Below, piece by piece: positions 19,892 to 56,708 of a DNA stretch of 64,000 bases. The position numbers and the translations under genes are program-made. How positions within the stretch are numbered: the first letter of the stretch is position 1; each line of letters starts with the position of its first letter. The DNA comes from a virus: the IMG/VR virus record IMGVR_UViG_3300027969_000050, positions 32,001-96,000 of that record; one strand, given 5' to 3'. A model generated the notes under the pieces. The model saw only the letters and a program-made list of their open reading frames with translations, did no database searches and was not told where the DNA came from.

Positions 19892-20004
19892 TGTGCTTTC
19901 CCCACAGAGCATCAAACATTGCAGCGAAGATAGGGTACAAGAAAGCCGCTGTCAAATCTCCAGCGTGATGAGCGACTGTTCTAATTGGGTTCACGTTTAA
20001 ATCT

Positions 20005-34214: not shown

Positions 34215-34397
34215 CTACAGAGAAGAAATACTATCGCCCCAAGAGACCGCTGTCAAGTGGCGATCTTTACGGCGAGCTTTGTCCTTCTGGCTCTGCTTAA
34301 CGACGTAATGGATTTCTTGGGAGATCCACTGCATCTCGACTAACATCTTTGAGACCTGAGTCCGGAGGACTGGATCTTTGATGTTAGGAGGGGCCAT
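34215..34397 (-). CDS. hypothetical protein
   Basis: 60-aa ORF, TAATG coupled. Confidence 0.5.
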   Translation of the reverse strand: MAPPNIKDPVLRTQVSKMLVEMQWISQEIHYVVKQSQKDKARRKDRHLTAVSWGDSISSL

Positions 34398-36420: not shown

Positions 36421-38259
36421 CTAAGAGGGATCCTCGACGGGACTAGCCTCATCAGGCTCAAAGGTCCTTTGATTGAACAGCCCCTCGTTCTCAACGTGAG
36501 AACTTGAATCGCCTCCGCACAAAGGACAGTTCCATTGGCGATACTCCGCAGGGGGACAATTGCGACTACGACCGTGATGCATTTTCTCGTTCCAGCCGGA
36601 GGTCTTCTCATCACTGCCGCCATTAATTTTGTGGTACATCGAGTTGGCCCAAGAGCGACCAGCATCGCCACCCCAGAGAAGCCAAGCGGTCTTCCACGGA
36701 GAGTTGCCCTTCCCTCCATCATCGGGACGAGTCTTGTCATGCCGCTCAAAGAAAGAATGCATCCTCTGAATGTGATCGGAAGTAAGAGGCTTGCCATCAG
36801 CAATCGAATGAGCGCGAGTCACAGTTGCCGACTCAAGTCCGTCTCCAGCCTCCCCTTGATTGACTAGCTCAATACCACGCCGAGCATTAGATCGCGCTCC
36901 TGATGGGGCAACATAGGAAGCTCCAAATTTAAATTCATTGGCTGGCCGATAGCCTTTGCCCGACAAAAATTTTTCAATCGCCGTTGCCTCAACGGCAACA
37001 TCGCCTTGATCGCTTTCGATGTTGTGCTTGCGAAAGAACTCCAAAGGCGAATCATTGAGATCATAGCGAGAAGGCCGAAAGGACTCGGGATGTTCATCCG
37101 GGTTCATGCCAGTCATCTGCTTGATCGAATCCGCCATTTCTAAATGATAACCCTTTTCACGTCCGATGAAAATGGTCTTTGATTTGCCATCATCAAAAAT
37201 CCAGATTGGCCAATCGCCCTCCTCCGGAAAGACTTCGCTGTGATCTCCATGCACATCCTCAACGCCTGTCAGATCGACAACTTGAACGCTCAATGGCGGA
37301 ACCTCATCTTTTGCCCCTCGCTGCATACGATCATTCCAGTCCCGAGGCCAAAGGTCCTCATCATTTAGCTCGTCTTCATTCCAAGCCGATCCCGGCTCCT
37401 CAGGAAGGAGTGTGCGATCTGCAATCGGTATGGTCCCGAGGCTCCTTGGCTCGGTTCCCCTTGGCCGGTCATCAAGCGGATAAGCCCCAGCAATTTCGGT
37501 CTCTCGTTCAACAGCGTTGTTTACGTCTGGCACGGTTTGGCTTGGACCCTTGGGTTTCCTTGTTTCAACTCCATTTTGACCAAGAAGCCTTTGAATCGTG
37601 GGATAGCTGACATTAAACTCGCGTCCAATGGCCCTAAGAGACGCCCCACCTTCGTACATCTCTTTCACCTTGGCTATGGCCTCTGGAGTTTGAAGAGCGG
37701 CTGCCTCCGGAGGAATTTGAGGCCTGAGTTCATTTCCCTCATCGGTAAGAACTCTTCTAACGGTCTCCCCGGCAACTCCAAGCTCGCGTCCAATCTCCTT
37801 TACGGATTTTCCGCCCTCGTACATCTCTTGAACTTCCCTAAGCATTCCTCGAATCTTGTCAGCGTGACCTTTGGTGGGCGGTTGAATGCCACCACCAAAT
37901 TTCATACGCTCGTTCCAGCTCGATTGACGACCCGGCATATAAAACCCTTGTTCGACGCCCCAGCCATCATCGTCAAGTTGAAGCCAATCGAACCGCATAA
38001 AAAATTCTCGGTTCTCGATCTCATTGACAAATAACGTCTTGCCAGTCTGATCGGAGTACGCCTTTAGAGCAAGCATGAATTCGGAACCCAATCCGGATCC
38101 CTTTTCTAAGGCGTGAAGATTGTCAAGATGAACGCTATCCGAATCCTCACGAAGCGCGAACTCGATGTTGCCACTGCGCGTCTCCAATTGAAGCCCCGAA
38201 AATTCGCTGTTAGAAACAACGCCTCCCAATTGCTGGGCTATGAAATCTTGAACCTGCAT
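36421..38259 (-). CDS. multidomain protein: GNAT-like + 2x HTH + repeat-family domain + head-associated WGGD domain + Zn ribbon
   Basis: EKGSGLGSEFM; two EMYEGG-x-S..IGRE HTH repeats; RMHSFFERH..AWLLWGGDAGRSWA; CPLCGG; start placed at ATG 38259. Confidence 0.72.
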   Translation of the reverse strand: MQVQDFIAQQLGGVVSNSEFSGLQLETRSGNIEFALREDSDSVHLDNLHALEKGSGLGSEFMLALKAYSDQTGKTLFVNEIENREFFMRFDWLQLDDDGWGVEQGFYMPGRQSSWNERMKFGGGIQPPTKGHADKIRGMLREVQEMYEGGKSVKEIGRELGVAGETVRRVLTDEGNELRPQIPPEAAALQTPEAIAKVKEMYEGGASLRAIGREFNVSYPTIQRLLGQNGVETRKPKGPSQTVPDVNNAVERETEIAGAYPLDDRPRGTEPRSLGTIPIADRTLLPEEPGSAWNEDELNDEDLWPRDWNDRMQRGAKDEVPPLSVQVVDLTGVEDVHGDHSEVFPEEGDWPIWIFDDGKSKTIFIGREKGYHLEMADSIKQMTGMNPDEHPESFRPSRYDLNDSPLEFFRKHNIESDQGDVAVEATAIEKFLSGKGYRPANEFKFGASYVAPSGARSNARRGIELVNQGEAGDGLESATVTRAHSIADGKPLTSDHIQRMHSFFERHDKTRPDDGGKGNSPWKTAWLLWGGDAGRSWANSMYHKINGGSDEKTSGWNEKMHHGRSRNCPPAEYRQWNCPLCGGDSSSHVENEGLFNQRTFEPDEASPVEDPS

Positions 38260-38333
38260 ATTATTTAACCCCCAGCAAGGGGACCCAACTAAGCAAAAGA
38301 CGGGACTCCTAAAGGGGACCCAAAGGGACCCGC

Positions 38334-38645
38334 TTACATCAAGCCGAGAGTACGACCCGCCGAGAGCCAACCGTGTTCGCACACGCCATCAGCTTCAACG
38401 TAACATCCTTCAGGACAATCCGTCAAGCCCATCGTGTCTTCCAACTCATGAGGAGCATATCCGTATTCAATATCTGATTGAAGTTCCGCCGCCGCATTTG
38501 GAGAAGGTTTCTCGCCTTGGCCGGTGGTGGGCTTAGAACCGGGAGGGCTAGGAATGTGATCGGGATGAACCCAACCGGGCTGCTCACCCTGTTGAGCGAT
38601 CTTCATTTCAGCCAGCATATCTTTAGATGTCGTAAGTTTCTTCAT
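38334..38645 (-). CDS. hypothetical protein with Cys/His cluster
   Basis: CPEGCYVEADGVCEHGWLS. Confidence 0.65.
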   Translation of the reverse strand: MKKLTTSKDMLAEMKIAQQGEQPGWVHPDHIPSPPGSKPTTGQGEKPSPNAAAELQSDIEYGYAPHELEDTMGLTDCPEGCYVEADGVCEHGWLSAGRTLGLM

Positions 38646-41301: not shown

Positions 41302-42426
41302 ATGGCTTCATCACCGATTCCCAAGGCAGACCAATGGCTCGATCAGAGCATCAAGAACCACGCCGCAGGTAAGCGTGGGATCAACGCTCTGCTCGTCGGC
41401 CTACACGGCACCGGCAAGACGACGTATGTAATGGAGAGGGCAGCAGCCAAGGGTCTGAAAGTCGCCCTGTTCACCTGCTCGATCCTCGACCCGTACACCG
41501 ACTTCGTTGGCGTCCCGTTCCAAGTGATTACCAACGAGGGAACGCCGAGCGAATCGCGCTACCTAGAGAAGGTGCGCCCCAAGGCAGTGGACGAGTGCGA
41601 TCTCATATTCTTCGACGAGATCAACCGCGCCGCTCCGGTCGTCCTGAACGCAATGCTGGAGATCATTCAGTTCGGCACGATCAACGGCGAGAAGCTCCCG
41701 AAGCTGATCGGCTGCTGGGCAGCGATGAACCCGCCTGACGCGGGCTACGACGTGAACCCTCTCGACCCTGCTCTCGTGGATCGCTTCGACACTTTCTACG
41801 AGGTCAAGGCCAAGCCGTCCGTGAAGTTTATGAGCGCGTCAATGCGCCCAGAGATCGCTAAGGCTCTCGTCAAGTGGTGGGAGGGTATGGATCGCTCCAA
41901 GCGAGACAACACCGACTACATCAGCCCTCGCCGTCTGGAAAAGATCGGCATCTACTACGACACCTTCGGCACGTTTGAGGAAGCCCTACCGGCCTCTATG
42001 ACGGTCGAGCGGTCGAAGCTGGCTGACCTGCTCCGTGACGCTGAGAACCAAGGCAAGGGCGTCGCCGCAGCAGCCTCGCAAGGCGGCATCGGTGGGGCGG
42101 CCAACGCCACCCTGACCTACAACCGCGATTGGATCCGCGAGTACCCGTCGGCCACTGTTGCCGTCCTCTCGTCGGCACCGGACGATCTGACCACTCACAA
42201 CGCGGTCGTGGCTTGCTTCGACAAGACCAGCGGGGCGAACCTCGTCAAGGACGACGGCGAGGTACTCAACGCCATCAAGCCGTCGGTGCTGGAGGCCTTC
42301 GTCGCCGGACTGACGCCAGCCAAGGCCAAGACTCTGGCCGAGAACGTCGCTGTGCTGCCGCAGGCAGACCGTGACCGGCTCGCCAGCCTCGTCTCTGTGG
42401 TGGAGGCAGATGCCCAGAAGCGCTAG
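41302..42426 (+). CDS. MoxR-like AAA+ ATPase
   Basis: GLHGTGKT Walker A, IFFDEINRA Walker B, AAMNP, LDPALVDRF, ISPRRLE. Confidence 0.92.
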   Translation: MASSPIPKADQWLDQSIKNHAAGKRGINALLVGLHGTGKTTYVMERAAAKGLKVALFTCSILDPYTDFVGVPFQVITNEGTPSESRYLEKVRPKAVDECDLIFFDEINRAAPVVLNAMLEIIQFGTINGEKLPKLIGCWAAMNPPDAGYDVNPLDPALVDRFDTFYEVKAKPSVKFMSASMRPEIAKALVKWWEGMDRSKRDNTDYISPRRLEKIGIYYDTFGTFEEALPASMTVERSKLADLLRDAENQGKGVAAAASQGGIGGAANATLTYNRDWIREYPSATVAVLSSAPDDLTTHNAVVACFDKTSGANLVKDDGEVLNAIKPSVLEAFVAGLTPAKAKTLAENVAVLPQADRDRLASLVSVVEADAQKR

Positions 42427-42437
42427 GGCAGCGGACA

Positions 42438-42462
42438 GGGCGGGGGGCTTCGGCTCCCCGTC
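42438..42462 (+). terminator. GC stem with UUCG loop
   Basis: GCGGGGGGC-TTCG-GCTCCCCGT after the ATPase stop; no clear U tract. Confidence 0.55.
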
Positions 42463-42467
42463 CGGCG

Positions 42468-42492
42468 TTCCGTCCGACACCTCTGGTAGAAT
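42468..42492 (+). promoter_or_regulatory. TTCCGTCCGA-box promoter, copy 6
   Basis: TTCCGTCCGA-N9-TAGAAT-GGATACATC. Confidence 0.85.
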
Positions 42493-42525
42493 GGATACAT
42501 CAACCGCAAGACTTTGGAGATTCTT

Positions 42526-43872
42526 ATGACCACCACCATCACACCTGACCAGCACTACCGCGAAGCGATCAAGTGGATTGACACCGAGGCCTACGCCTAC
42601 TTCGTCACTTCGATCCTGAACCTTGGCAAGCCCAACTGGAACAGCGCGATCCCCACAGCCTGCGTAGGCGTCCCTCAGGACGGCCAGCAGGGTCACGGCA
42701 GCACCAGCGGCTTTGAGTACCACTTTAACCCTCAGTTCGCTCTCAAGCTCCCAGCGTCCCAGCTTGCCTTCGTCGCAGCCCACGAGACGCTCCACATCGT
42801 CCTGAACCACCTCGCCCTGTCGGACAAGTACCCCGACCACTCGCTCTTTAACATCGCCGCCGACTGTGTTATCAACGACTACCTCGCCCAGCAGGGCTTC
42901 GACGTGCCTGAGTGGGTTATGACCGGCGAGAAGCAGGTCGGTTGGAACGCAGCGGATAGCACCGTCAGCGCCGTGTACGCGGCTCTCCAGCACCGTGAGC
43001 GCACCGAAGGCGGCTCTCCAGAAGCGGGAGAGGCCGGAGACACCTCAGGCGGCAGCGCAGGAGACGGCAGCCTCGTGGACACCCACGAGTGGATCCACGA
43101 CGCTACGGCGGAGCAGAAGGCCGCCGCCGAGAAGGCGTCCGGCGATCAGAAGGACGCTGGCAACCTGCCGCAGGAGGTCGAGGATCAGAAGGGCGACGCT
43201 CAAACCGGCAACGGTCACGGCATCAGCGGAGGGGGCGAGGGGCGCGAGTTCTTTAAGGACGGCTCCGTGACGCTCCGCTGGGAGGCTCTGATCCGCCGCA
43301 TCAACCCAGACGCCTACAAGCGTCACGCTCCGGCTCCAAGTTGGCTGCGCCAGCCGCCACGCCTGATCGGGAGCAACTGCCGCCTGCCTGAGTACCCAGA
43401 CGTGAACCGAGACCAGTCCGGCTTCGCAGAGCAGCCCGCTCTCGTCCTCGCTCTGGACACCAGCGGCTCGATCCAAGACGAGGACGCCCGCCGCTTTATC
43501 AACCTCGCTCGCTCGATCCCCCAGAGCAAGGTCAAGCTGTTCCCCATCACGTTCACAACCAAGACGATGGATCTCGATCTCGACAACCCGTACTACGAGG
43601 GAGGCGGCACCGACTTCGGTTGTATCGAGGCCTACATTCAGGCCAGCGTCGTGAGCCAGCTAGGCCACTACCCCAAGGCCGTCGTCGTCATTACAGACGG
43701 GCAGGCTGGCTGGCATCGTGGCCAGCACGTCGAGCCGTCAAACCGCAAGTCGTGGACGTGGCTCTGGACTCACAAGGGTACCTTTAACCGCTACGCCCAC
43801 AACTCCGGCTACGCCGAGGGCGAGACCTGTAACTTCGGAACCGCTGAGGCTCTCAGCGACTACACCAACTAG
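42526..43872 (+). CDS. HExxH metallopeptidase-like + VWA domain protein (DUF2201-type MoxR partner)
   Basis: AHETLHIVLNH, NIAADCVIN, LALDTSGS (MIDAS), GGGTDF, VVITDG. Confidence 0.9.
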   Translation: MTTTITPDQHYREAIKWIDTEAYAYFVTSILNLGKPNWNSAIPTACVGVPQDGQQGHGSTSGFEYHFNPQFALKLPASQLAFVAAHETLHIVLNHLALSDKYPDHSLFNIAADCVINDYLAQQGFDVPEWVMTGEKQVGWNAADSTVSAVYAALQHRERTEGGSPEAGEAGDTSGGSAGDGSLVDTHEWIHDATAEQKAAAEKASGDQKDAGNLPQEVEDQKGDAQTGNGHGISGGGEGREFFKDGSVTLRWEALIRRINPDAYKRHAPAPSWLRQPPRLIGSNCRLPEYPDVNRDQSGFAEQPALVLALDTSGSIQDEDARRFINLARSIPQSKVKLFPITFTTKTMDLDLDNPYYEGGGTDFGCIEAYIQASVVSQLGHYPKAVVVITDGQAGWHRGQHVEPSNRKSWTWLWTHKGTFNRYAHNSGYAEGETCNFGTAEALSDYTN

Positions 43873-49630: not shown

Positions 49631-49673
49631 AAACGGAAGGCTAAACCGACCGCTCAGGCGGTCGTTTCCGTTT
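49631..49673. terminator. probable bidirectional terminator between convergent blocks
   Basis: AAACGGAA..CGACCGC-TCAG-GCGGTCG-TTTCCGTTT nested inverted repeat. Confidence 0.65.
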
Positions 49674-49774
49674 GTCTCTCCAAACCGCGATTTCATCACG
49701 CACCAAACCGCGAACAAAGAGCGCTGGAAGCAACGCCCAGAAAACGATCTCCGTTATCTCGTGGCCGCGAAACT

Positions 49775-51235
49775 TCACAAACCGCTTTCTTTCCAGTCGA
49801 ACACGCCTGACGTTCTTCCCAAAGCCAAATTGAGAAGTTTGTCTCGTTCGTTGATCGAAGGATCGCCAATCACCTGACCCATAAGGCTCTCAAGAATTTG
49901 TCCGATCTCTGGGCCTCGAGGAACGCCAGCCTCAATTAAATCTTGGCCGTTGATTGCCAACTGAGAAAGATCAGTCGGCTGCTGCTGCTGGCGCACTTGA
50001 TCCACAAGGCCGCGCTGAACCTCGTACTCGTTGTCATCAAACGCATCTTGCCCTTCGCCCTTCGCCGCTTGATCAGCCCAGCGCAGGTTCAGCAGATCAT
50101 CTGCGTGCGGCTCGACCCGATTTAAAAATTTTCTTGCGCCCTTCTCCGAGTCAAACGGGGCAAACATATGGTGCTTTACGAGGTCCGAAACCCGATCAGT
50201 CCTGTCCTTCGGGTACCTCAAACGGGTCATTGCGTCCCTAGTCATTTCCTCACCGACGAGTTCGTGTTGCTGACCTATTGTGCTTCCGTCAGGCAGGCGC
50301 TTCTGGTAGTAATGGTTTGTTCCTCGCTCTGGATTCACCCAAGCGGATGCGGGCTTGCCAATATCGTGGAGCAAACCGGCCAAACGGGCATCTGGGTCAT
50401 CAGTTTTCTGACTGATTCGGTCAAGCACGTCAAGCATATGCTCGCCAAGTTCTAAAGCGTGGTGCGGATTGTTCTGGTCGTAGCCGAACGTTGCATCGAC
50501 CTCAGGCAAAATATATTTAAGTACGCCGCTGTCGTGGGCCAAACGGATGGCGCCGACTGGGTCGTCCGAAGAAAAAATTTTATCCAGCTCTGCTTGCACT
50601 CTTTCGGCTGGGAGATGTTGGAGGCTTGCTGCCGCCTCAGCCATTTGGGCAATCGTTCCCTCGTCAGGGTGAAGGCCATGCCGACCCTTAGCCACAAGCG
50701 CCCTAGCAACCCTGAGCGGATCCTCGCTTAGCGACTGGTCGTGGATTGTTCTTAGTCGCCCACCTGCGATGTCCTCAGCGCCATTGTGCGGATCAATAAG
50801 TTCGCCCGTTCCTAGATTGACGGCCATCGCATTCGCTGTGAAGTCACGCCTCAAAAGATCTTCTTCAGGCGAAAGGGTGTGGTCGGCATCAACAGAAAAA
50901 TCCGTGTGCTTGTCGCCAGTTGACTGTTCGTGGCGAGGCAGCGCGATCTCGACCTCCTCACCGCCCTGCTTGTAACGAAAGACGCCAAAATCTTTTCCTG
51001 TGTAATCAATGTCTCCACCCAGTGGAGCTAAAACCGAATCAATATTTTCTTTTGGAATACCAGAGACCATGAGGTCAATGTCCTTCGGGGTCTTGCCCAT
51101 GATCGTGTCCCGGACCGCGCCTCCAACTGCGTAAACCTGCCCACCAGCAGCCATAAGCGCTTCAACAACGGGCTGAATAACAGGATTGCTTGCGACAATT
51201 TGCCTTACCGACTGTCCCACATTGTCCTCAGCGGC
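49775..51235 (-). other. cca: class II tRNA nucleotidyltransferase (CCA-adding / polyA polymerase family) + HD domain, within the large ORF
   Basis: YAVGGAVRD, KDIDL, EDLLRRDFTANAMA, EDPLRVAR, ERVQAELDK, QNNPHH..HM, LLHDIGK, LAINGQDLI..GPEIGQIL. Confidence 0.92.
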
Positions 51236-54200
51236 TCCGAAGTGAAACTCGTCTCCGCCCTGACCTCGCGCCCTTCCACGGAGGCCTCCGCCCGGTTGTA
51301 GGTCCGGCTGACCCAAGGCGCGATTGATCATTTCCACCTGATCGGGGGTTGGGTTTCCATAAAAACTGATCTTCTGATCCTCTCTTGGCGGACCCGAGGC
51401 GTGACTATTCGGGGGCCAAGTTACTCGACCACTGAGAAAGGTTCCTTCCTGAAGGGCTTTCATCCAGAAAGTGATTGCGCTGGCGCCATCCCCATTCAAA
51501 AATTTATTTCTGAATTCGGAATCCTGCGAGAGCATCTCGTAGTGATAGCCACCGGGCGGTCCAAAATAAACGGCGTTGTCCTCCGGGAGATAGAACCAAG
51601 GGGCGTCTAGTTCAGGACTCTTGTGAACTTCGTTGGGCTGGAACTTGATGTAAACGACTTTTGGAGGATTCAGTTCGTCAAATGCCCCGAAACGAAAATC
51701 TTCTTCTTGCTCATCCAGAACCTCATCCGCAGGAAAAATATTTCTTAGGGCGTCGTTGACTCCCGGAGCCGGTTCCGTCAGACCTTGATTGTCGGAGTTT
51801 GGAAACGAATCTTCCCAACTAAAATTACCTGAATTTTGCCAATACTCGCCTCTGCAAGGATCGCCCGCCGCAATCAAATTTTCTCCAACGTTCTCAGAGA
51901 GTCCCATAGGACGACCCACCCTTGGAATATCAAACTCGTTTATAAGGTCCTCGTGATACTGACCGCGAAGGCCAACGTAAAGCGCATTGGCGGAAGGCCA
52001 ATAGATAAACGGAATTCGGTTTTCGTGGTAGTCCATTCCTTTCCTATTGTGTTCTTCATTCTGAGATATGAAAACCGTGACGCCTTGCCTAGTTCTATAG
52101 GTGCCAGCGGCTCCGAAACGGAAGCCCTCATCTTCTTGAGCCGGATCAGAAAAAATATTTATTAGCGCGTCGTTGAGTCCTGCTTCTGGTTCGGTGCCTT
52201 CATCGTTGAACCACTGAAGGGAGTCGTAGCTTGGTGGAATAAAACTTCCGTCACCCGGAACGCGGCGCCAATACTCGCCGTGTGTGTCAGGCCCAAAACC
52301 GCCGCGTAAATCGAAATCGGCTTCCGTCCAAGCCCCCCGAATGTCGAATTCTTCTACAAGGTCGTCGTGATACTGGCCAAAGACGCCAACATAGAGCGCG
52401 TTATTGACAGGGCAATAAATAAATGGCGCCCTGTCCTTGTTGAAAACCCTATGTTCATCTGGATCTTGTGATATCAAAACATCGGTGCCAAACTCAGTGG
52501 CCGCCCCGAAATGAAAGTCTTCAGGGCTTTCGCTTTGCCTCAAATCATCTAGATCAGCAAGCGGATAGTCGGGCAAACCAAGCGCTTCGCAGATGGCTGG
52601 AGCCAATGCCGCCGCCTCTGGGTTATTGGGATCAACAAAGTCGGGCATCAGGCGGTCAAACCTCGTCCAAAAAGAAAATCTTGGCGCGTCCTCGAGTCCG
52701 GCCTCCCTAAGAGCTTTTTCAATGATCACATGATGGATGTCGGGAACCGAGCCAATCCAAATTTGTCCCTGCTCAGGCAAAACAATTAGGGAGTAGCCTC
52801 CAAGCTCATCTCCTTCCCTAGGAATAATTATTCCTTTGTTCGCACGGCCCGTGCCGACAACTCGACCATCATCATCAAGCCAAACGGGAGTTAATTCTGT
52901 CGAGGATCCAAAGTGGAATTCTGAGGCTCCTCCGCCAACAAGGCCATTCAAAGCAGTAATCATTTCCGCTTGGACGCTTTCGGGGACTCGGCTGCCATAA
53001 AACACCAAGTCATTTGGCGGCGAGAACCTTCCAAAGAAATCATAAGACCCGTACTGATTGACGACGCCTCTAGGAAGCTTATTTGTCATTTCGTTATGAA
53101 AGCCGTCTTCCCTTCCAATAGCAATGCTCCATCCATCGTGCCGCGTCGCGTCAGGGTTCATCTCGAGATAGCGCCGTTCTTCTTCGGCTGGGACGCCGAA
53201 CCGCTCTTCGATGTTTATGTCTAGGGTTCCTTCGTCCCAAGCAACAACAGGGTAAAGCTTGTCCATACCTGCACTCGGATAAGGGGTACTCTCCAAATAT
53301 TCTCCGTGGCTTGGATAATCGGGATCCGCCTTGGCGCCCCTGAGGTCAAGCAGCTCGACATGGCTTAAGATGGCTCGAGATTTTTTCTTTGCGCCCTCAT
53401 CATCTCCTTGGCCTTCTTCGCTAAGATTTTTTAATTCTGAGATGTCGGTTGGCTCTTCAGGAATGATCATTGGTCCGCCCATTGATTTGGGGCAAGGACC
53501 GGGCTTGTGATTGAAGCCGCATTCCTCACAGGCACCAAATTTTAAATCCTCTTCGTCAAGCTCAACACGCACTTGTTCGCTCTTACGACGGAACTTATCA
53601 AGCACCTTTTGGATGCGCGAAGTTGACTTTTTTCCTCCAGAGAGAAAATCGGAGTTCCGGATACCACTTTCATTTTCATTTTCGAACGAATTCACCCAGT
53701 TTCTAAGGATATTTGCGAAGATCGGGGCGTCAAGTTCATCATCTTTGGCAAATGCGTTTGCCTGACTATCGGCAGGTTGGGCAGGTTGCGTATCAGAGAA
53801 GGAAAAGTCAGGATCCCCAAGGAAATGATCAACAATTCCCTCGCCTCCTTGCGGATCAAACGCCTCCCAGCCTGTTCCAAAGGGCTTGTTGTCTGCTCCG
53901 AACTTAAAATCTTCTTGCTCCCACTGCTGGCTAATGTCAAGATTGTCGATAAAGGCCTTGATATTAGAGGGGATCGGCTGTTCATCATAAGGCGGGCGCA
54001 TCCAATCAACCGGACCAAATTGACTTTTCCTTCCTTCCCACGCAGCTCCGTCGATTGCGCCCAAAGTCAAATGCGAGTCCCAAGTGGTTCCAACTTGAAC
54101 CGTGTTGCTTTTTGGCCAATAAATAATCGGACAGTCGCCTCGAGGATCGGGCGCACCGCCGCCGGTTGATTCAAAGACGACCTTTGGCTCCTCTGAAGCG

Positions 54201-56248
54201 CCAAATTTAAAATCTTTGGGCGTTCCAAAGAACTCATCAAGCTTTGCTTCGCAAGCAGCCTTCTCTGATTCGGATAAATTTTCCAGACCAGACCCCCACA
54301 GTTCGCCATCGTATCGGCACTGAGCAACAAAAGTAAGATCTTTGTTTACATCCACCGCTCTGTTAGGAATGTCTGAGTGGTAGGCCCCTTCAGCTCCGAT
54401 ATACATATTGATTAGGCTTGCTGGCGCCCATTCGGAACTTTGGTCCAACAAGGCATAAATATAAACTGGGTGGGACACGCCACCACCCTCATCATCATGT
54501 TCAGATCCGTAGTCGGATTCCTTGATTAGATCGATGACATTGATCTCTGGTTGCTCTGCCGCTCCAAACTTAAACCCGGGAGTGGTACCCAAAAATTCAT
54601 CCAGACTATTTTGAATGTCTTCACGAAGCATGGGATCACCATCAGCAATAAAATCGCGTCCATGAGGATAACGCAGAAGAGGCAAAGTTGAGATATCCAC
54701 CCCATCAATCTCTGCTCGTTTTGCGACCTCACGGAATTTCGGATCCCCCATAATTTCTTCGTGATAGCCATTTGGCCTACCGACGAAAACTTCGTATTTT
54801 ATATCGCCCTCCCAAGGATGTCCTACCGGAACAATTATTATTGGCCAATCGGTTCCACCGGTATCGATTCTTTCGTTGTGGTCTCCGTGAAGGTCACGGA
54901 CTCCAGTCAGGTCAACCACCTCAACAAAATTAGGAAGCGAGCCGCCTTCGTCTTCTAAGACCGAACCGAACTTAAACCCGGGATCCGTACCCAAAAACTC
55001 GTCCAGATCCTTTTGGATGTTTTCCGGGACGTATTGGCGTCCAGACGGGTAGCGACTGTAGCCGACCTCTTCGTACCACTTCCGTGAAAAGACATCAGAA
55101 CCGGACATGCGTTTTTCGAACTCGGGATCCTCTTCTATTTCAGTATGGAAGCCGTTTTCTCTGCCAACAAAGACGGTCCAGCGATTTCCTACTGGAACAA
55201 TAATTATTGGCCAGTCAAAGGATCTAGGTTGCTTGCTTGGTTCGTCCCCGACTTCAGAAATAAAAGCGTCGTGGCCACCGAAGCGATCATCCATTTCGGT
55301 TAGGTCGATGATCTCGACATCCTCATTAGAACCGAATTTAAAATCGTCTTGAACTCCGAGGGCCGACTTTACCGCTGAATCAAATTCGACTGTCCATCCA
55401 TCGGGGTACCCCCGGCCAGCGGAGCCATACTCATGCTCGCTGCCCAAAAGCATCCACTGGGTAATTGCATCGTTTACACGAAATAAAGCAACTTGATCAC
55501 CGTAAAAACGATCAACATACCTTGCTCCTCCGGGAGAGGCGATGCCACGCGCAGTAAGTACCGTCATCACATCTTCATGGAAATCATCATAACTTCCAAT
55601 AAAAGCCCTTGTCTCCGTCGGGCCTAAGATTGCTATTCCGGGTCGATCTCCGGTTCCATGCGAACCGTTAAGATTTGCGTCGTTGGCGTCTGAGGTATCA
55701 AGGATTTCTACTGAGACTGGGACGGTCTCGATCTGTGAGCGCAACCTGCCATCAGAACCAAATTTAAAATCTTCTTGTGCGGGACCCATTACTGGCGCCA
55801 CTCGCTGTAATTCTGACTTGACTGCTGATTCAAATTCGGGAGGTGGACGTGGAATTTCCACAGTGTCCGTCCAATCACTGGAATTGTTCCCGTACCAATC
55901 CTCAATAGTTCCATCAGGATAAACCCGGAAACAAACAACCGGGCCAAGATCGGAAGAGAAAGCGCGAAAGTCTCCCGGCTGTTGGGTCAGAATTCCCTGA
56001 GCTTCCAATATGGCAATTAAGTCATAATGAAATGCTTGATATTCGCCAATGAAAACCTTTATCTCCGTCGGGGCAAAGATCGCTACTCCGGGGCGGTCTC
56101 CGGTGTCGTGCGTTTGCCACGAGTCATAATGCCTTGACTCTGAGGTGTCGAGAACCTCAACTGAAATTGGAAGCGAGTAATTCAGAACCCGCGTCACACC
56201 GTCAATGTTGGTCCAGCCGTCATTGTCAAATTCGGTTAGGTCGTCCAC
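49775..56248 (-). CDS. 2157-aa putative polyprotein: 12 FxFG-delimited modules + C-terminal CCA-adding-type enzyme with HD domain
   Basis: 12 F/L-[KHR]-F-G-[AS] motifs spaced 101-209 aa apart; C-terminal 486 aa is a class II nucleotidyltransferase. Confidence 0.88.
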   Translation of the reverse strand: MDDLTEFDNDGWTNIDGVTRVLNYSLPISVEVLDTSESRHYDSWQTHDTGDRPGVAIFAPTEIKVFIGEYQAFHYDLIAILEAQGILTQQPGDFRAFSSDLGPVVCFRVYPDGTIEDWYGNNSSDWTDTVEIPRPPPEFESAVKSELQRVAPVMGPAQEDFKFGSDGRLRSQIETVPVSVEILDTSDANDANLNGSHGTGDRPGIAILGPTETRAFIGSYDDFHEDVMTVLTARGIASPGGARYVDRFYGDQVALFRVNDAITQWMLLGSEHEYGSAGRGYPDGWTVEFDSAVKSALGVQDDFKFGSNEDVEIIDLTEMDDRFGGHDAFISEVGDEPSKQPRSFDWPIIIVPVGNRWTVFVGRENGFHTEIEEDPEFEKRMSGSDVFSRKWYEEVGYSRYPSGRQYVPENIQKDLDEFLGTDPGFKFGSVLEDEGGSLPNFVEVVDLTGVRDLHGDHNERIDTGGTDWPIIIVPVGHPWEGDIKYEVFVGRPNGYHEEIMGDPKFREVAKRAEIDGVDISTLPLLRYPHGRDFIADGDPMLREDIQNSLDEFLGTTPGFKFGAAEQPEINVIDLIKESDYGSEHDDEGGGVSHPVYIYALLDQSSEWAPASLINMYIGAEGAYHSDIPNRAVDVNKDLTFVAQCRYDGELWGSGLENLSESEKAACEAKLDEFFGTPKDFKFGASEEPKVVFESTGGGAPDPRGDCPIIYWPKSNTVQVGTTWDSHLTLGAIDGAAWEGRKSQFGPVDWMRPPYDEQPIPSNIKAFIDNLDISQQWEQEDFKFGADNKPFGTGWEAFDPQGGEGIVDHFLGDPDFSFSDTQPAQPADSQANAFAKDDELDAPIFANILRNWVNSFENENESGIRNSDFLSGGKKSTSRIQKVLDKFRRKSEQVRVELDEEDLKFGACEECGFNHKPGPCPKSMGGPMIIPEEPTDISELKNLSEEGQGDDEGAKKKSRAILSHVELLDLRGAKADPDYPSHGEYLESTPYPSAGMDKLYPVVAWDEGTLDINIEERFGVPAEEERRYLEMNPDATRHDGWSIAIGREDGFHNEMTNKLPRGVVNQYGSYDFFGRFSPPNDLVFYGSRVPESVQAEMITALNGLVGGGASEFHFGSSTELTPVWLDDDGRVVGTGRANKGIIIPREGDELGGYSLIVLPEQGQIWIGSVPDIHHVIIEKALREAGLEDAPRFSFWTRFDRLMPDFVDPNNPEAAALAPAICEALGLPDYPLADLDDLRQSESPEDFHFGAATEFGTDVLISQDPDEHRVFNKDRAPFIYCPVNNALYVGVFGQYHDDLVEEFDIRGAWTEADFDLRGGFGPDTHGEYWRRVPGDGSFIPPSYDSLQWFNDEGTEPEAGLNDALINIFSDPAQEDEGFRFGAAGTYRTRQGVTVFISQNEEHNRKGMDYHENRIPFIYWPSANALYVGLRGQYHEDLINEFDIPRVGRPMGLSENVGENLIAAGDPCRGEYWQNSGNFSWEDSFPNSDNQGLTEPAPGVNDALRNIFPADEVLDEQEEDFRFGAFDELNPPKVVYIKFQPNEVHKSPELDAPWFYLPEDNAVYFGPPGGYHYEMLSQDSEFRNKFLNGDGASAITFWMKALQEGTFLSGRVTWPPNSHASGPPREDQKISFYGNPTPDQVEMINRALGQPDLQPGGGLRGRARGQGGDEFHFGAAEDNVGQSVRQIVASNPVIQPVVEALMAAGGQVYAVGGAVRDTIMGKTPKDIDLMVSGIPKENIDSVLAPLGGDIDYTGKDFGVFRYKQGGEEVEIALPRHEQSTGDKHTDFSVDADHTLSPEEDLLRRDFTANAMAVNLGTGELIDPHNGAEDIAGGRLRTIHDQSLSEDPLRVARALVAKGRHGLHPDEGTIAQMAEAAASLQHLPAERVQAELDKIFSSDDPVGAIRLAHDSGVLKYILPEVDATFGYDQNNPHHALELGEHMLDVLDRISQKTDDPDARLAGLLHDIGKPASAWVNPERGTNHYYQKRLPDGSTIGQQHELVGEEMTRDAMTRLRYPKDRTDRVSDLVKHHMFAPFDSEKGARKFLNRVEPHADDLLNLRWADQAAKGEGQDAFDDNEYEVQRGLVDQVRQQQQPTDLSQLAINGQDLIEAGVPRGPEIGQILESLMGQVIGDPSINERDKLLNLALGRTSGVFDWKESGL

Positions 56249-56444: not shown

Positions 56445-56456
56445 TTACGGAAGATA

Positions 56457-56708
56457 TCAGGGCAAAAGAGCGCTGTCAATACCGTGAGTCGAAAAGTCTG
56501 TATCAACGTATCCACGAGCGCGGGCTTCTGTGACGGCAAGAAACTCTTCGTACACAGCGTCTCCAGTGTGATTGAACATCGCTCGGTCGTAAGCGTCGCC
56601 CTTGCTCTGGAACTCACGAATGACCTGTAGCAACTTGATGTTGCCCATTGCTTTGTAGTTGCGTGGCCTTTTGCTTAGGTATGTCATAATAGACATATTA
56701 TAGCACAA
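56457..56708 (-). CDS. hypothetical protein (true start probably ATG 56687)
   Basis: TGCTATAAT at 56697-56705 lies inside the tracked 5' end. Confidence 0.55.
   Translation of the reverse strand: MCYNMSIMTYLSKRPRNYKAMGNIKLLQVIREFQSKGDAYDRAMFNHTGDAVYEEFLAVTEARARGYVDTDFSTHGIDSALLP

Follow-up and report, generated by a model that had tools for sequence, protein, structure and literature searches.

A giant phage gene encodes a chain of small acidic modules that may be separated at a repeated junction peptide ahead of a predicted CCA-adding enzyme

The window analysed here is a stretch of 64,000 nucleotides (bases 32001-96000) from the 140,266-bp linear IMG/VR record IMGVR_UViG_3300027969_000050, for which CheckV gives a completeness of 87%. 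Its minus strand carries a single open frame with a GTG start, P0001 (positions 49775-56248 of the window), which codes for a protein of 2157 amino acids (aa). P0001 consists of 12 pieces, each delimited by the same short junction motif, and of a C-terminal CCA-adding/HD enzyme (Table 1). We tentatively suggest that P0001 is a precursor polyprotein, the joints of which are its cutting signals.

The motif, [FL][KHR]FG[AS], stands at residues 161, 303, 425, 559, 680, 781, 902, 1111, 1245, 1376, 1518 and 1668. An earlier, sequence-only reading of this DNA had listed 12 copies together with the sizes of the pieces between them, and we recover both exactly. By chance the motif is expected 0.018 times on average and twice at most (20,000 shuffles of the protein), versus the 12 copies observed. 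The same reading had described the junction as more conserved than the modules it joins, and this is true: in the module alignments only a G, an H and the F-x-F-G are invariant, while the mean column identity is 13-25%. The codons of the 12 copies vary synonymously (TTT/TTC, GGT/GGA/GGC/GGG, GCN/TCN), hence the constraint acts on the peptide and not on the DNA, and a repeat or recombination signal at the DNA level is ruled out as the source of the conservation. When the sequence is read directly, no in-frame start codon follows any of the joints. This rules out separate translation of the modules, thus separate products would require proteolysis.

Table 1. Pieces of P0001, the second modular protein P0002 and flanking signals. 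Positions are those of the window.
Feature	Residues	Length (aa)	Position	Strand	Description
Piece 1	1-164	164	55757-56248	-	His-module, ends DFKFG (codons 55757-55768)
Piece 2	165-306	142	55331-55756	-	His-module, ends DFKFG (55331-55342); missing from P0004 and P0005
Piece 3	307-428	122	54965-55330	-	His-module, ends GFKFG (54965-54976)
Piece 4	429-562	134	54563-54964	-	His-module, ends GFKFG (54563-54574); copy used for folding
Piece 5	563-683	121	54200-54562	-	His-module, ends DFKFG (54200-54211)
Piece 6	684-784	101	53897-54199	-	Short His-module, ends DFKFG (53897-53908); missing from P0004 and P0005
Piece 7	785-905	121	53534-53896	-	Not a His-module; ends DLKFG (53534-53545)
Piece 8	906-1114	209	52907-53533	-	Cys-rich N-terminal stretch and His-module with long insert, ends EFHFG (52907-52918)
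Piece 9	1115-1248	134	52505-52906	-	His-module, ends DFHFG (52505-52516)
Piece 10	1249-1379	131	52112-52504	-	His-module, ends GFRFG (52112-52123)
Piece 11	1380-1521	142	51686-52111	-	His-module, ends DFRFG (51686-51697)
Piece 12	1522-1671	150	51236-51685	-	His-module, ends EFHFG (51236-51247), immediately before the enzyme
Piece 13	1672-2157	486	49778-51235	-	Class II tRNA nucleotidyltransferase (CCA-adding type) with HD domain
P0002		653	36421-38382	-	Two helix-turn-helix domains (Pfam), one His-module, phrog_2859 domain, Cys-rich Zn-ribbon-like C-terminal region (by eye)
13th junction motif, (E)FKFG(AS)			36922-36933	-	End of the P0002 His-module
Promoter candidate, sigma-70-like			56451-56479	-	TTGACA-17-TATCTT with TG, ~200 nt upstream of the P0001 start
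Terminator-like hairpin			49719-49738	-	Just past the P0001 stop codon

Eleven of the 12 N-terminal pieces are diverged copies of one acidic domain of ~110 aa, the His-module. Its signature is x-V-F-V-G-x-x-x-G-[YF]-H-x-[ED] with an invariant Gly and an invariant His, and it terminates in the invariant F-x-F-G. The copies are 18-54% identical to piece 4, and the isoelectric points (pI) of all P0001 pieces lie between 4.1 and 5.1. Single pieces of P0001 give no Pfam match at E up to 0.05, and the His-module has no match in Pfam, the PDB or viral folds. Piece 7 (53534-53896, minus strand) is the best-conserved piece apart from the enzyme, with 94-95% identity in the relatives P0004 and P0005 and 55-56% in P0006 and P0007. 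A degenerate inner motif is present in it, DFSFS in P0001 and DFTFG in P0006 and P0007.

For structure prediction with AlphaFold we took piece 4 together with both flanking joints. The mean predicted local distance difference test score (pLDDT) was 70.8 with an alignment of 11 rows and 80.4 with one of 37 rows (five models, 77.2-80.4). Both models share a core of three strands (27-32, 54-61, 70-75), two helices (82-87, 89-100), a strand (110-113) and a long helix (125-139), and in both the two flanking motif copies are coil outside this strand-helix core. Among the module copies, the motif stands at distances from the last helix that differ by ~20 residues. FxFG is thus not predicted as an integral strand of the module fold; such a strand was what the sequence-only reading had named as speaking against its proposal.

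Residues 1672-2157, directly after the last motif, were described earlier as an intact class II CCA/HD enzyme, and both domain matches and catalytic motifs bear this out. The head PolyA_pol (PF01743) is matched at 1e-23 (84.4 bits vs a cut-off of 23), the neck PolyA_pol_RNAbd (PF12627) with 52 bits, HD (PF01966) with 33.7 bits and tRNA_NucTran2_2 (PF13735) with 29.3 bits vs a cut-off of 27. The match to the tRNA nucleotidyltransferase family phrog_2244 reaches 5e-75, and GGAVRD, DID, RRD (RRDFTANA), EDPLR (EDPLRVAR) and H...HD are all legible. Sequence does not separate CCA-adding, A-adding and poly(A) polymerase activities with certainty; CCA addition is the predicted one. The nearest CCA enzymes in IMG/VR are only 31% identical.

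The record has three tRNA genes and no others, for Lys-UUU, Leu-UAA and Asn-GUU (L003:18449-19470, minus strand; genome 114449-115470). None of the three encodes CCA: the 3' ends are followed by TTT, TAG or TTT in its place. Hence a plainer role than the tRNA repair ahead of phage gene expression that was proposed earlier is available for the predicted enzyme, namely finishing the 3' ends of the phage's own tRNAs. The enzyme might also mend tRNAs with damaged 3' ends; in E. coli Cca the HD domain acts as a 2',3'-cyclic phosphodiesterase. The enzyme is fused to the module chain in P0001, P0004, P0006 and P0007 and in a separate cluster, P0033, and in the contig L008, from a distant relative, it is a separate gene, next after a module chain of 4,516 aa. 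This separate enzyme (P0122, L008:15432-17237, plus strand, 601 aa) bears one N-terminal His-module followed by WKFVP. The association of modules with CCA/HD thus recurs, fused in two branches and as an adjacent gene in a third, which points to a role in controlling or repairing the 3' ends of tRNAs in the course of infection.

The sequence-only reading had proposed to look among homologues for variation in module number, and close relatives indeed gain and lose whole modules at the motif. The pieces of P0004 and P0005 are 71-99% identical to those of P0001, unevenly between modules. Both relatives lack pieces 2, 4 and 6, P0005 also lacks piece 10, and in P0004 the core of piece 11 is swapped for a cassette of 355 aa. 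All break points with respect to P0001 are at motifs.

Natural protein ends coincide with the motif as well. Among 115 family proteins 21 end within two residues of the aromatic pair, where 2.9 are expected (binomial P ~1e-12), and 12 of the 21 end exactly at ...[WF]-x-F; the stop codons of P0040, P0011 and P0025 were verified on the DNA. P0011, encoded at a syntenic position, is a module chain that has no enzyme attached and has ...FKFGFRFGNAS as its C-terminus. In the contig L018 a gene with the end ...HWQFGE is followed, one base on, by the start of another module-chain gene. Since the natural ends fall at F and the preference for G/A/S followed by A/S is found only at internal joints, we suggest F|G as the scissile bond. 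A cut at FG|A/S, as proposed earlier, is also possible, and the natural termini favour F|G at least as much.

The wider family was searched for with a His-module profile against 1.84 billion representative proteins. The profile matches 114 protein clusters, 44 of them with E of 1e-10 or better, and the family proteins reach 4,942 aa and 14 matched module copies. A giant phage protein family with this domain and joint is previously undescribed, and neither megablast with the whole gene nor tblastn with the module part found a match in the phage collection. At least two copies of the same joint, [DE]-[WF]-[KHR]-F-G-[AS], occur in 30 of 117 family proteins, and the whole family set holds 165 motifs, versus 22.6 in shuffles. 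We built a logo of the joint from 150 sites in 29 family proteins, from which P0003, a duplicate of P0001, was excluded; the median motif-to-motif spacing is 135 aa. Positions -3 to -1 are mostly acidic (E/D in 57-95 of 150) with Pro second. Position 0 is W (78) or F (55), +1 is K (69), H (57) or R (23), +2 is F (128) or L (19), +3 is the G fixed by the search pattern, and +4 is A (80) or S (56). When G is not required, the residue directly after the pattern [DE]x?[WF][KRHQ]F is G, A or S at 192 of 205 sites (94%). The residue after that is A or S at 62% of these unbiased sites, and at 91% where G comes first.

Other lineages of the family repeat different words, some of them directly before the module: SKTAA/HTAA, WDFTSA, GASEP and HLVDP. 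Words that differ between lineages in this way are what one would expect if a protease and its sites evolve together. Pfam finds in 16 relatives only scattered PcfJ, HNH, GNAT, cREC_REC and YunG domains.

A 13th copy of the junction motif, EFKFGAS, which the sequence-only reading had not listed beside the 12 of P0001, ends the His-module of a second modular protein, P0002. In its homologue P0123 the helix-turn-helix pair and the Zn-ribbon-like C-terminal region are almost identical to those of P0002, and a different His-module and a different fourth domain stand between the same fixed joints. At its other domain boundaries P0002 carries W-N-[ED]-[RK]-M-x-x-G three times. The ATG codons at 37905, 37326 and 36582 are each closely preceded by a weakly Shine-Dalgarno-like CTGGAAYGA, and the start of P0123, the sole near homologue, coincides exactly with the Met of the first copy. 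Translation may start internally at these sites, instead of or besides their being cut.

The phage is contractile-tailed and a distant relative of Bixzunavirus (cluster C mycobacteriophages), its portal being 41% identical; PHROG matches in the record include sheath, capsid and terminase. The minus strand runs from the terminase over two unknown genes, the portal, a phosphoesterase, a deoxynucleoside monophosphate (dNMP) kinase and small genes on to P0001, which shares its strand with the portal and lies ~11 kb further downstream. Directly before it stand five unknown genes of 354, 667, 253, 518 and 483 aa. The last of these shares ~100 aa with gp97 of Bixzunavirus, a protein of 1275 aa encoded between the portal and capsid genes. 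The capsid gene itself, the product of which belongs to a major-head-protein PHROG family, and the gene of a protease-scaffold fusion (P0009) are ~60 kb away from P0001.

The gap upstream of P0001 is 474 bp long and holds the promoter candidate of Table 1, which is kept in the relative L006 along with ~200 nt of leader. Promoter consensus scans are at chance level overall, so the call is suggestive only; it hints that P0001 may be transcribed as a separate unit by the host RNA polymerase. Promoter-like sites at 56451-56479, 34228-34256 and 19927-19955, all on the minus strand, have in common an extended -35 element, TTGACAGCG, and a -10 element TA..(C)TT. Rfam finds no RNA family anywhere in the window, hence none in the conserved 5' leader.

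Beyond P0001 follows a convergent plus-strand block with a MoxR ATPase and a DUF2201_N metallopeptidase. The gap of 460 bp between the convergent blocks contains opposed terminator-like hairpins (49647-49664 on the plus strand, 49719-49738 on the minus strand). The MoxR-type AAA ATPase adjoins the putative DUF2201_N metallopeptidase at 41302-43872 (plus strand), and the GC content of the 40-46 kb block is 0.60-0.63 vs ~0.51 elsewhere. This pair and Ku are kept near the giant gene in L006, L007 and L017. In L007 and L008, two of four relatives, the giant gene stands among small open reading frames (ORFs) and the genes of DNA ligase, MoxR, DUF2201_N and Ku, off the syntenic row of genes that follows the portal here.

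The sequence-only reading had combined a polyprotein with capsid loading and with the prohead protease as the cutting enzyme. We retain the polyprotein with joints as cutting or release signals and not the two other parts. In a six-frame scan of the record F[KHR]FG occurs, in frames of at least 80 codons, only in P0001 and P0002. A looser pattern gives four more isolated matches, none of them in the capsid protein, the protease-scaffold fusion, the portal or the six tail/virion ORFs scanned with PHROG; one lies near the start of an ORF of 606 aa that was not part of the PHROG scan (genome 136530-138350). The module, like the motif, is confined in the record to P0001 and P0002. The major capsid protein, protease-scaffold fusion, portal and tail proteins have neither, which argues against the prohead protease as the enzyme that cuts the joints.

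P0009, the protease-scaffold fusion of 840 aa (L002:3609-6131, minus strand; genome 23609-26131), matches the head maturation protease family phrog_18299 with residues 98-261 and has no sequence relative in the PDB. It contains several CxxC pairs and, in its C-terminal half, two copies of EPFP[AS][AS][DE]EGVKKS, at which P0009 may itself be processed. Pfam reveals no peptidase family either in P0001 or in the 16 relatives on which it was run. The DUF2201_N metallopeptidase, 6 kb away, together with MoxR was considered as the processing enzyme and rejected: it lies near the giant gene in four contigs, but these are syntenic relatives, and DUF2201_N is also common in N4-like phages, hence there is no specific link to the joints.

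The reading that we consider best, and hold only tentatively, is a precursor polyprotein that would be processed at or next to F-G by a protease other than the prohead enzyme. The gene would give a chain of small acidic alpha/beta His-modules, each of ~110-150 aa with a pI of 4.1-5.1 and each ending in an acidic-aromatic tail, [DE]-[WF]-[KHR]-F, with G-[AS] following at internal joints. After translation the chain would be cut at each joint, F|G or G|A/S, by a protease of the phage or of the host, probably not the prohead protease. The cutting would free ~12 small acidic proteins with the aromatic tail at or near their free C-termini, and also the CCA-adding/HD enzyme of 53 kDa, which would then, at the least, finish the three phage tRNAs at their 3' ends. 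For the small modules the most likely role would be that of rapidly evolving factors for host takeover or counter-defence: they diverge unevenly (74-99% between close relatives), come and go, and are acidic and small, much as in counter-defence arsenals. The joint is read as a cutting or release signal because it is conserved in distant relatives, lies in predicted coil, bounds the gain and loss of modules and coincides with natural ends and a gene boundary. A more specific form of this proposal is possible, though we regard it as rather doubtful: a cut by a dedicated or host protease after the Phe of every [DE][DE][WF]xF|G[AS] joint would free the CCA/HD enzyme and expose the tails of a dozen diverged acidic mini-proteins that would need free acidic-aromatic C-termini. 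Such free tails could dock on host or phage partners. They would resemble the C-terminal tails of SSB, the single-stranded-DNA-binding protein, and of T7 gp2.5; an SSB with a matching tail was looked for, and no SSB was found in the record.

Several points weigh against processing. Architecture, motif conservation, predicted coil location, module turnover and natural ends are observed; cleavage is inferred, and so are the cut site, a protease and what the modules do. Trypsin_2, Peptidase_S78, Peptidase_S77 and Peptidase_Prp have no match in the 87%-complete record. Many family members have no recognisable repeated joint. The pLDDT values at the motif, under 50 in the first model and 58-62 with the deeper alignment, leave room for a loosely docked tail. 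A tail that is just part of every module and is never cut would also account for the natural ends at the motif. In P0122 the aromatic core of WKFVP lacks the small residues after it, and there the module may remain linked to the enzyme. The same observations favour an uncut chain of beads on a string, in which the peptide would be the functional or structural tail of each module, a short linear binding motif or a cap that serves just as well within the chain, and the enzyme would work within a fusion of 235 kDa: the aromatic core is retained at true C-termini where there is nothing to cut, it is retained in P0122, the protease search is negative and a pLDDT of ~60 permits partial docking. However, the residues after the aromatic core are far more tightly restricted than those of an ordinary linker, module indels and gene boundaries fall exactly at the joint, the distance from fold to motif is variable, and other lineages carry unrelated words, some at module boundaries. 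We thus judge the uncut chain to be rather unlikely, if a serious alternative.

Virion cargo deserves less credence. P0001 loaded in the prohead and cut by the head-maturation protease, so that the pieces and the CCA enzyme are injected with the DNA, would agree with the location of the gene on the portal strand, with the domain that the upstream gene of 483 aa shares with Bixzunavirus gp97, and with the precedents of T4 and phiKZ/SPN3US head proteins (PMC10052503) and of polyvalent proteins (PMC5512222). However, the capsid protein, the protease-scaffold fusion, the portal and all tail proteins are without the motif. The gene has its own conserved sigma-70-like promoter candidate and terminator-like hairpin, the phosphoesterase and the dNMP kinase stand between it and the portal, and its neighbours in L007 and L008 are small ORFs and ligase, MoxR and Ku genes. 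Loading into the capsid is thus improbable. Still less likely, and open to the same objections to late or virion association, is a motif that would serve as a targeting peptide and dock the modules, cut or uncut, on the inner face of an HK97-fold capsid or on the scaffold. Capsids of such phages and encapsulin shells have the HK97 fold in common, and encapsulin cargo carries C-terminal loading peptides; the joint peptide is likewise short, terminal or in a linker, lineage-specific and repeated, and the phage capsid protein is of a major-head-protein family. The least credible of the alternatives is cleavage in cis, with every His-module acting as a protease on the joint at its own C-terminus, in the manner of the alphavirus capsid. 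The site of that protease consists of acidic residues, an aromatic P1 and a small P1' and is cut at W|S, and the joint resembles it; every module has the invariant His, usually with an acidic residue two positions on, beside the invariant joint. An invariant Ser, Cys or Asp nucleophile is lacking, however, no protease-like fold is matched, and piece 7 and other profile-negative pieces, some perhaps too diverged, also end in the motif.

Irrespective of cutting, the His-module is a new domain family of at least 114 protein clusters with proteins of up to ~5,000 residues and no Pfam, PDB or viral-fold match. If the tail-exposing form of the proposal is true, it would also be a new fold family, and lineage-coded joints would offer large phages a general route to arsenals of small effectors. 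If the joints are cut, there would be a readable junction code that varies by lineage, and the mature proteome of uncultured phages would be predictable from sequence. The natural C-termini give a concrete prediction of the cut position.

The nearest described concept is that of polyvalent proteins (Iyer et al. 2017, PMC5512222). Like these, P0001 is very large and strings together independent modules including a nucleic-acid enzyme, modules are gained and lost in a mosaic manner, and proteolytic release of the units is proposed in both cases, the main text of that study assigning it to peptidase domains (PMC5512222). Unlike them, P0001 is mostly one domain in 11 copies rather than a set of disparate activities, with one other small module, the nucleotidyltransferase and HD. 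PcfJ, HNH and GNAT domains, which some relatives of P0001 bear, are typical of polyvalent proteins. P0001 has, in contrast, no peptidase domain in or beside its chain, the DUF2201_N gene being 6 kb off. It also has a strict repeated junction peptide; that study is not known to describe one, nor the His-module, and the word 'linker' is absent from its main text (PMC5512222). A CCA-adding enzyme is not among polyvalent-protein domains ('CCA' occurs 0 times in the text, PMC5512222). Delivery with the virion, part of the polyvalent concept, is unsupported for P0001, the context of which is mixed: it lies on the portal strand, but with a sigma-70-like promoter candidate of its own and off the syntenic row in two relatives.

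Cutting signals as such exist in phages (PMC10052503, PMC5744158). The T4 internal proteins and Alt are cut by gp21 at L/I-x-E, and head and ejection proteins of phiKZ and SPN3US by gp175 and gp245 (PMC10052503, PMC5694885). As in these substrates, a short repeated motif would mark the cut, and enzymes are deliverable in the head. In T4, phiKZ and SPN3US, however, the motif is also present in capsid, portal and scaffold proteins and mostly removes N-terminal propeptides, whereas here it is confined to two modular proteins and stands between whole domains. The host protease Prp cuts L27 and the capsid and scaffolding proteins of phage 80alpha between F and A (PMC5744158). This resembles the suggested cut after Phe and before a small residue, and it is a precedent for a phage using a host protease. 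Prp acts in the context N-L-Q-x-F|A. That context is not found at the joints ([DE][DE][WF][KHR]F|G[AS]), and PF04327 is absent from the phage record.

The terminal enzyme is like E. coli Cca and the stand-alone phrog_2244 enzymes in having all four Pfam domains and the catalytic motifs, and it differs from stand-alone phage tRNA nucleotidyltransferases in standing behind 1671 residues of modules. In polyubiquitin, head-to-tail copies are set free by cleavage at a peptide conserved at their C-termini. P0001 is similar in that it repeats one small domain, and the last copy may bear a few extra residues, as in P0011 and P0021. Tandem-repeat polyproteins are known also from the nematode polyprotein allergens (PMC3079579). 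Unlike polyubiquitin-type chains, the copies in P0001 are strongly diverged, their fold is unrelated and an enzyme stands at the end of the chain. Hence, if the joints are cut, P0001 and its relatives would represent a polyprotein strategy like that of RNA viruses and polyubiquitin in tailed phages, with many small proteins made from one gene.

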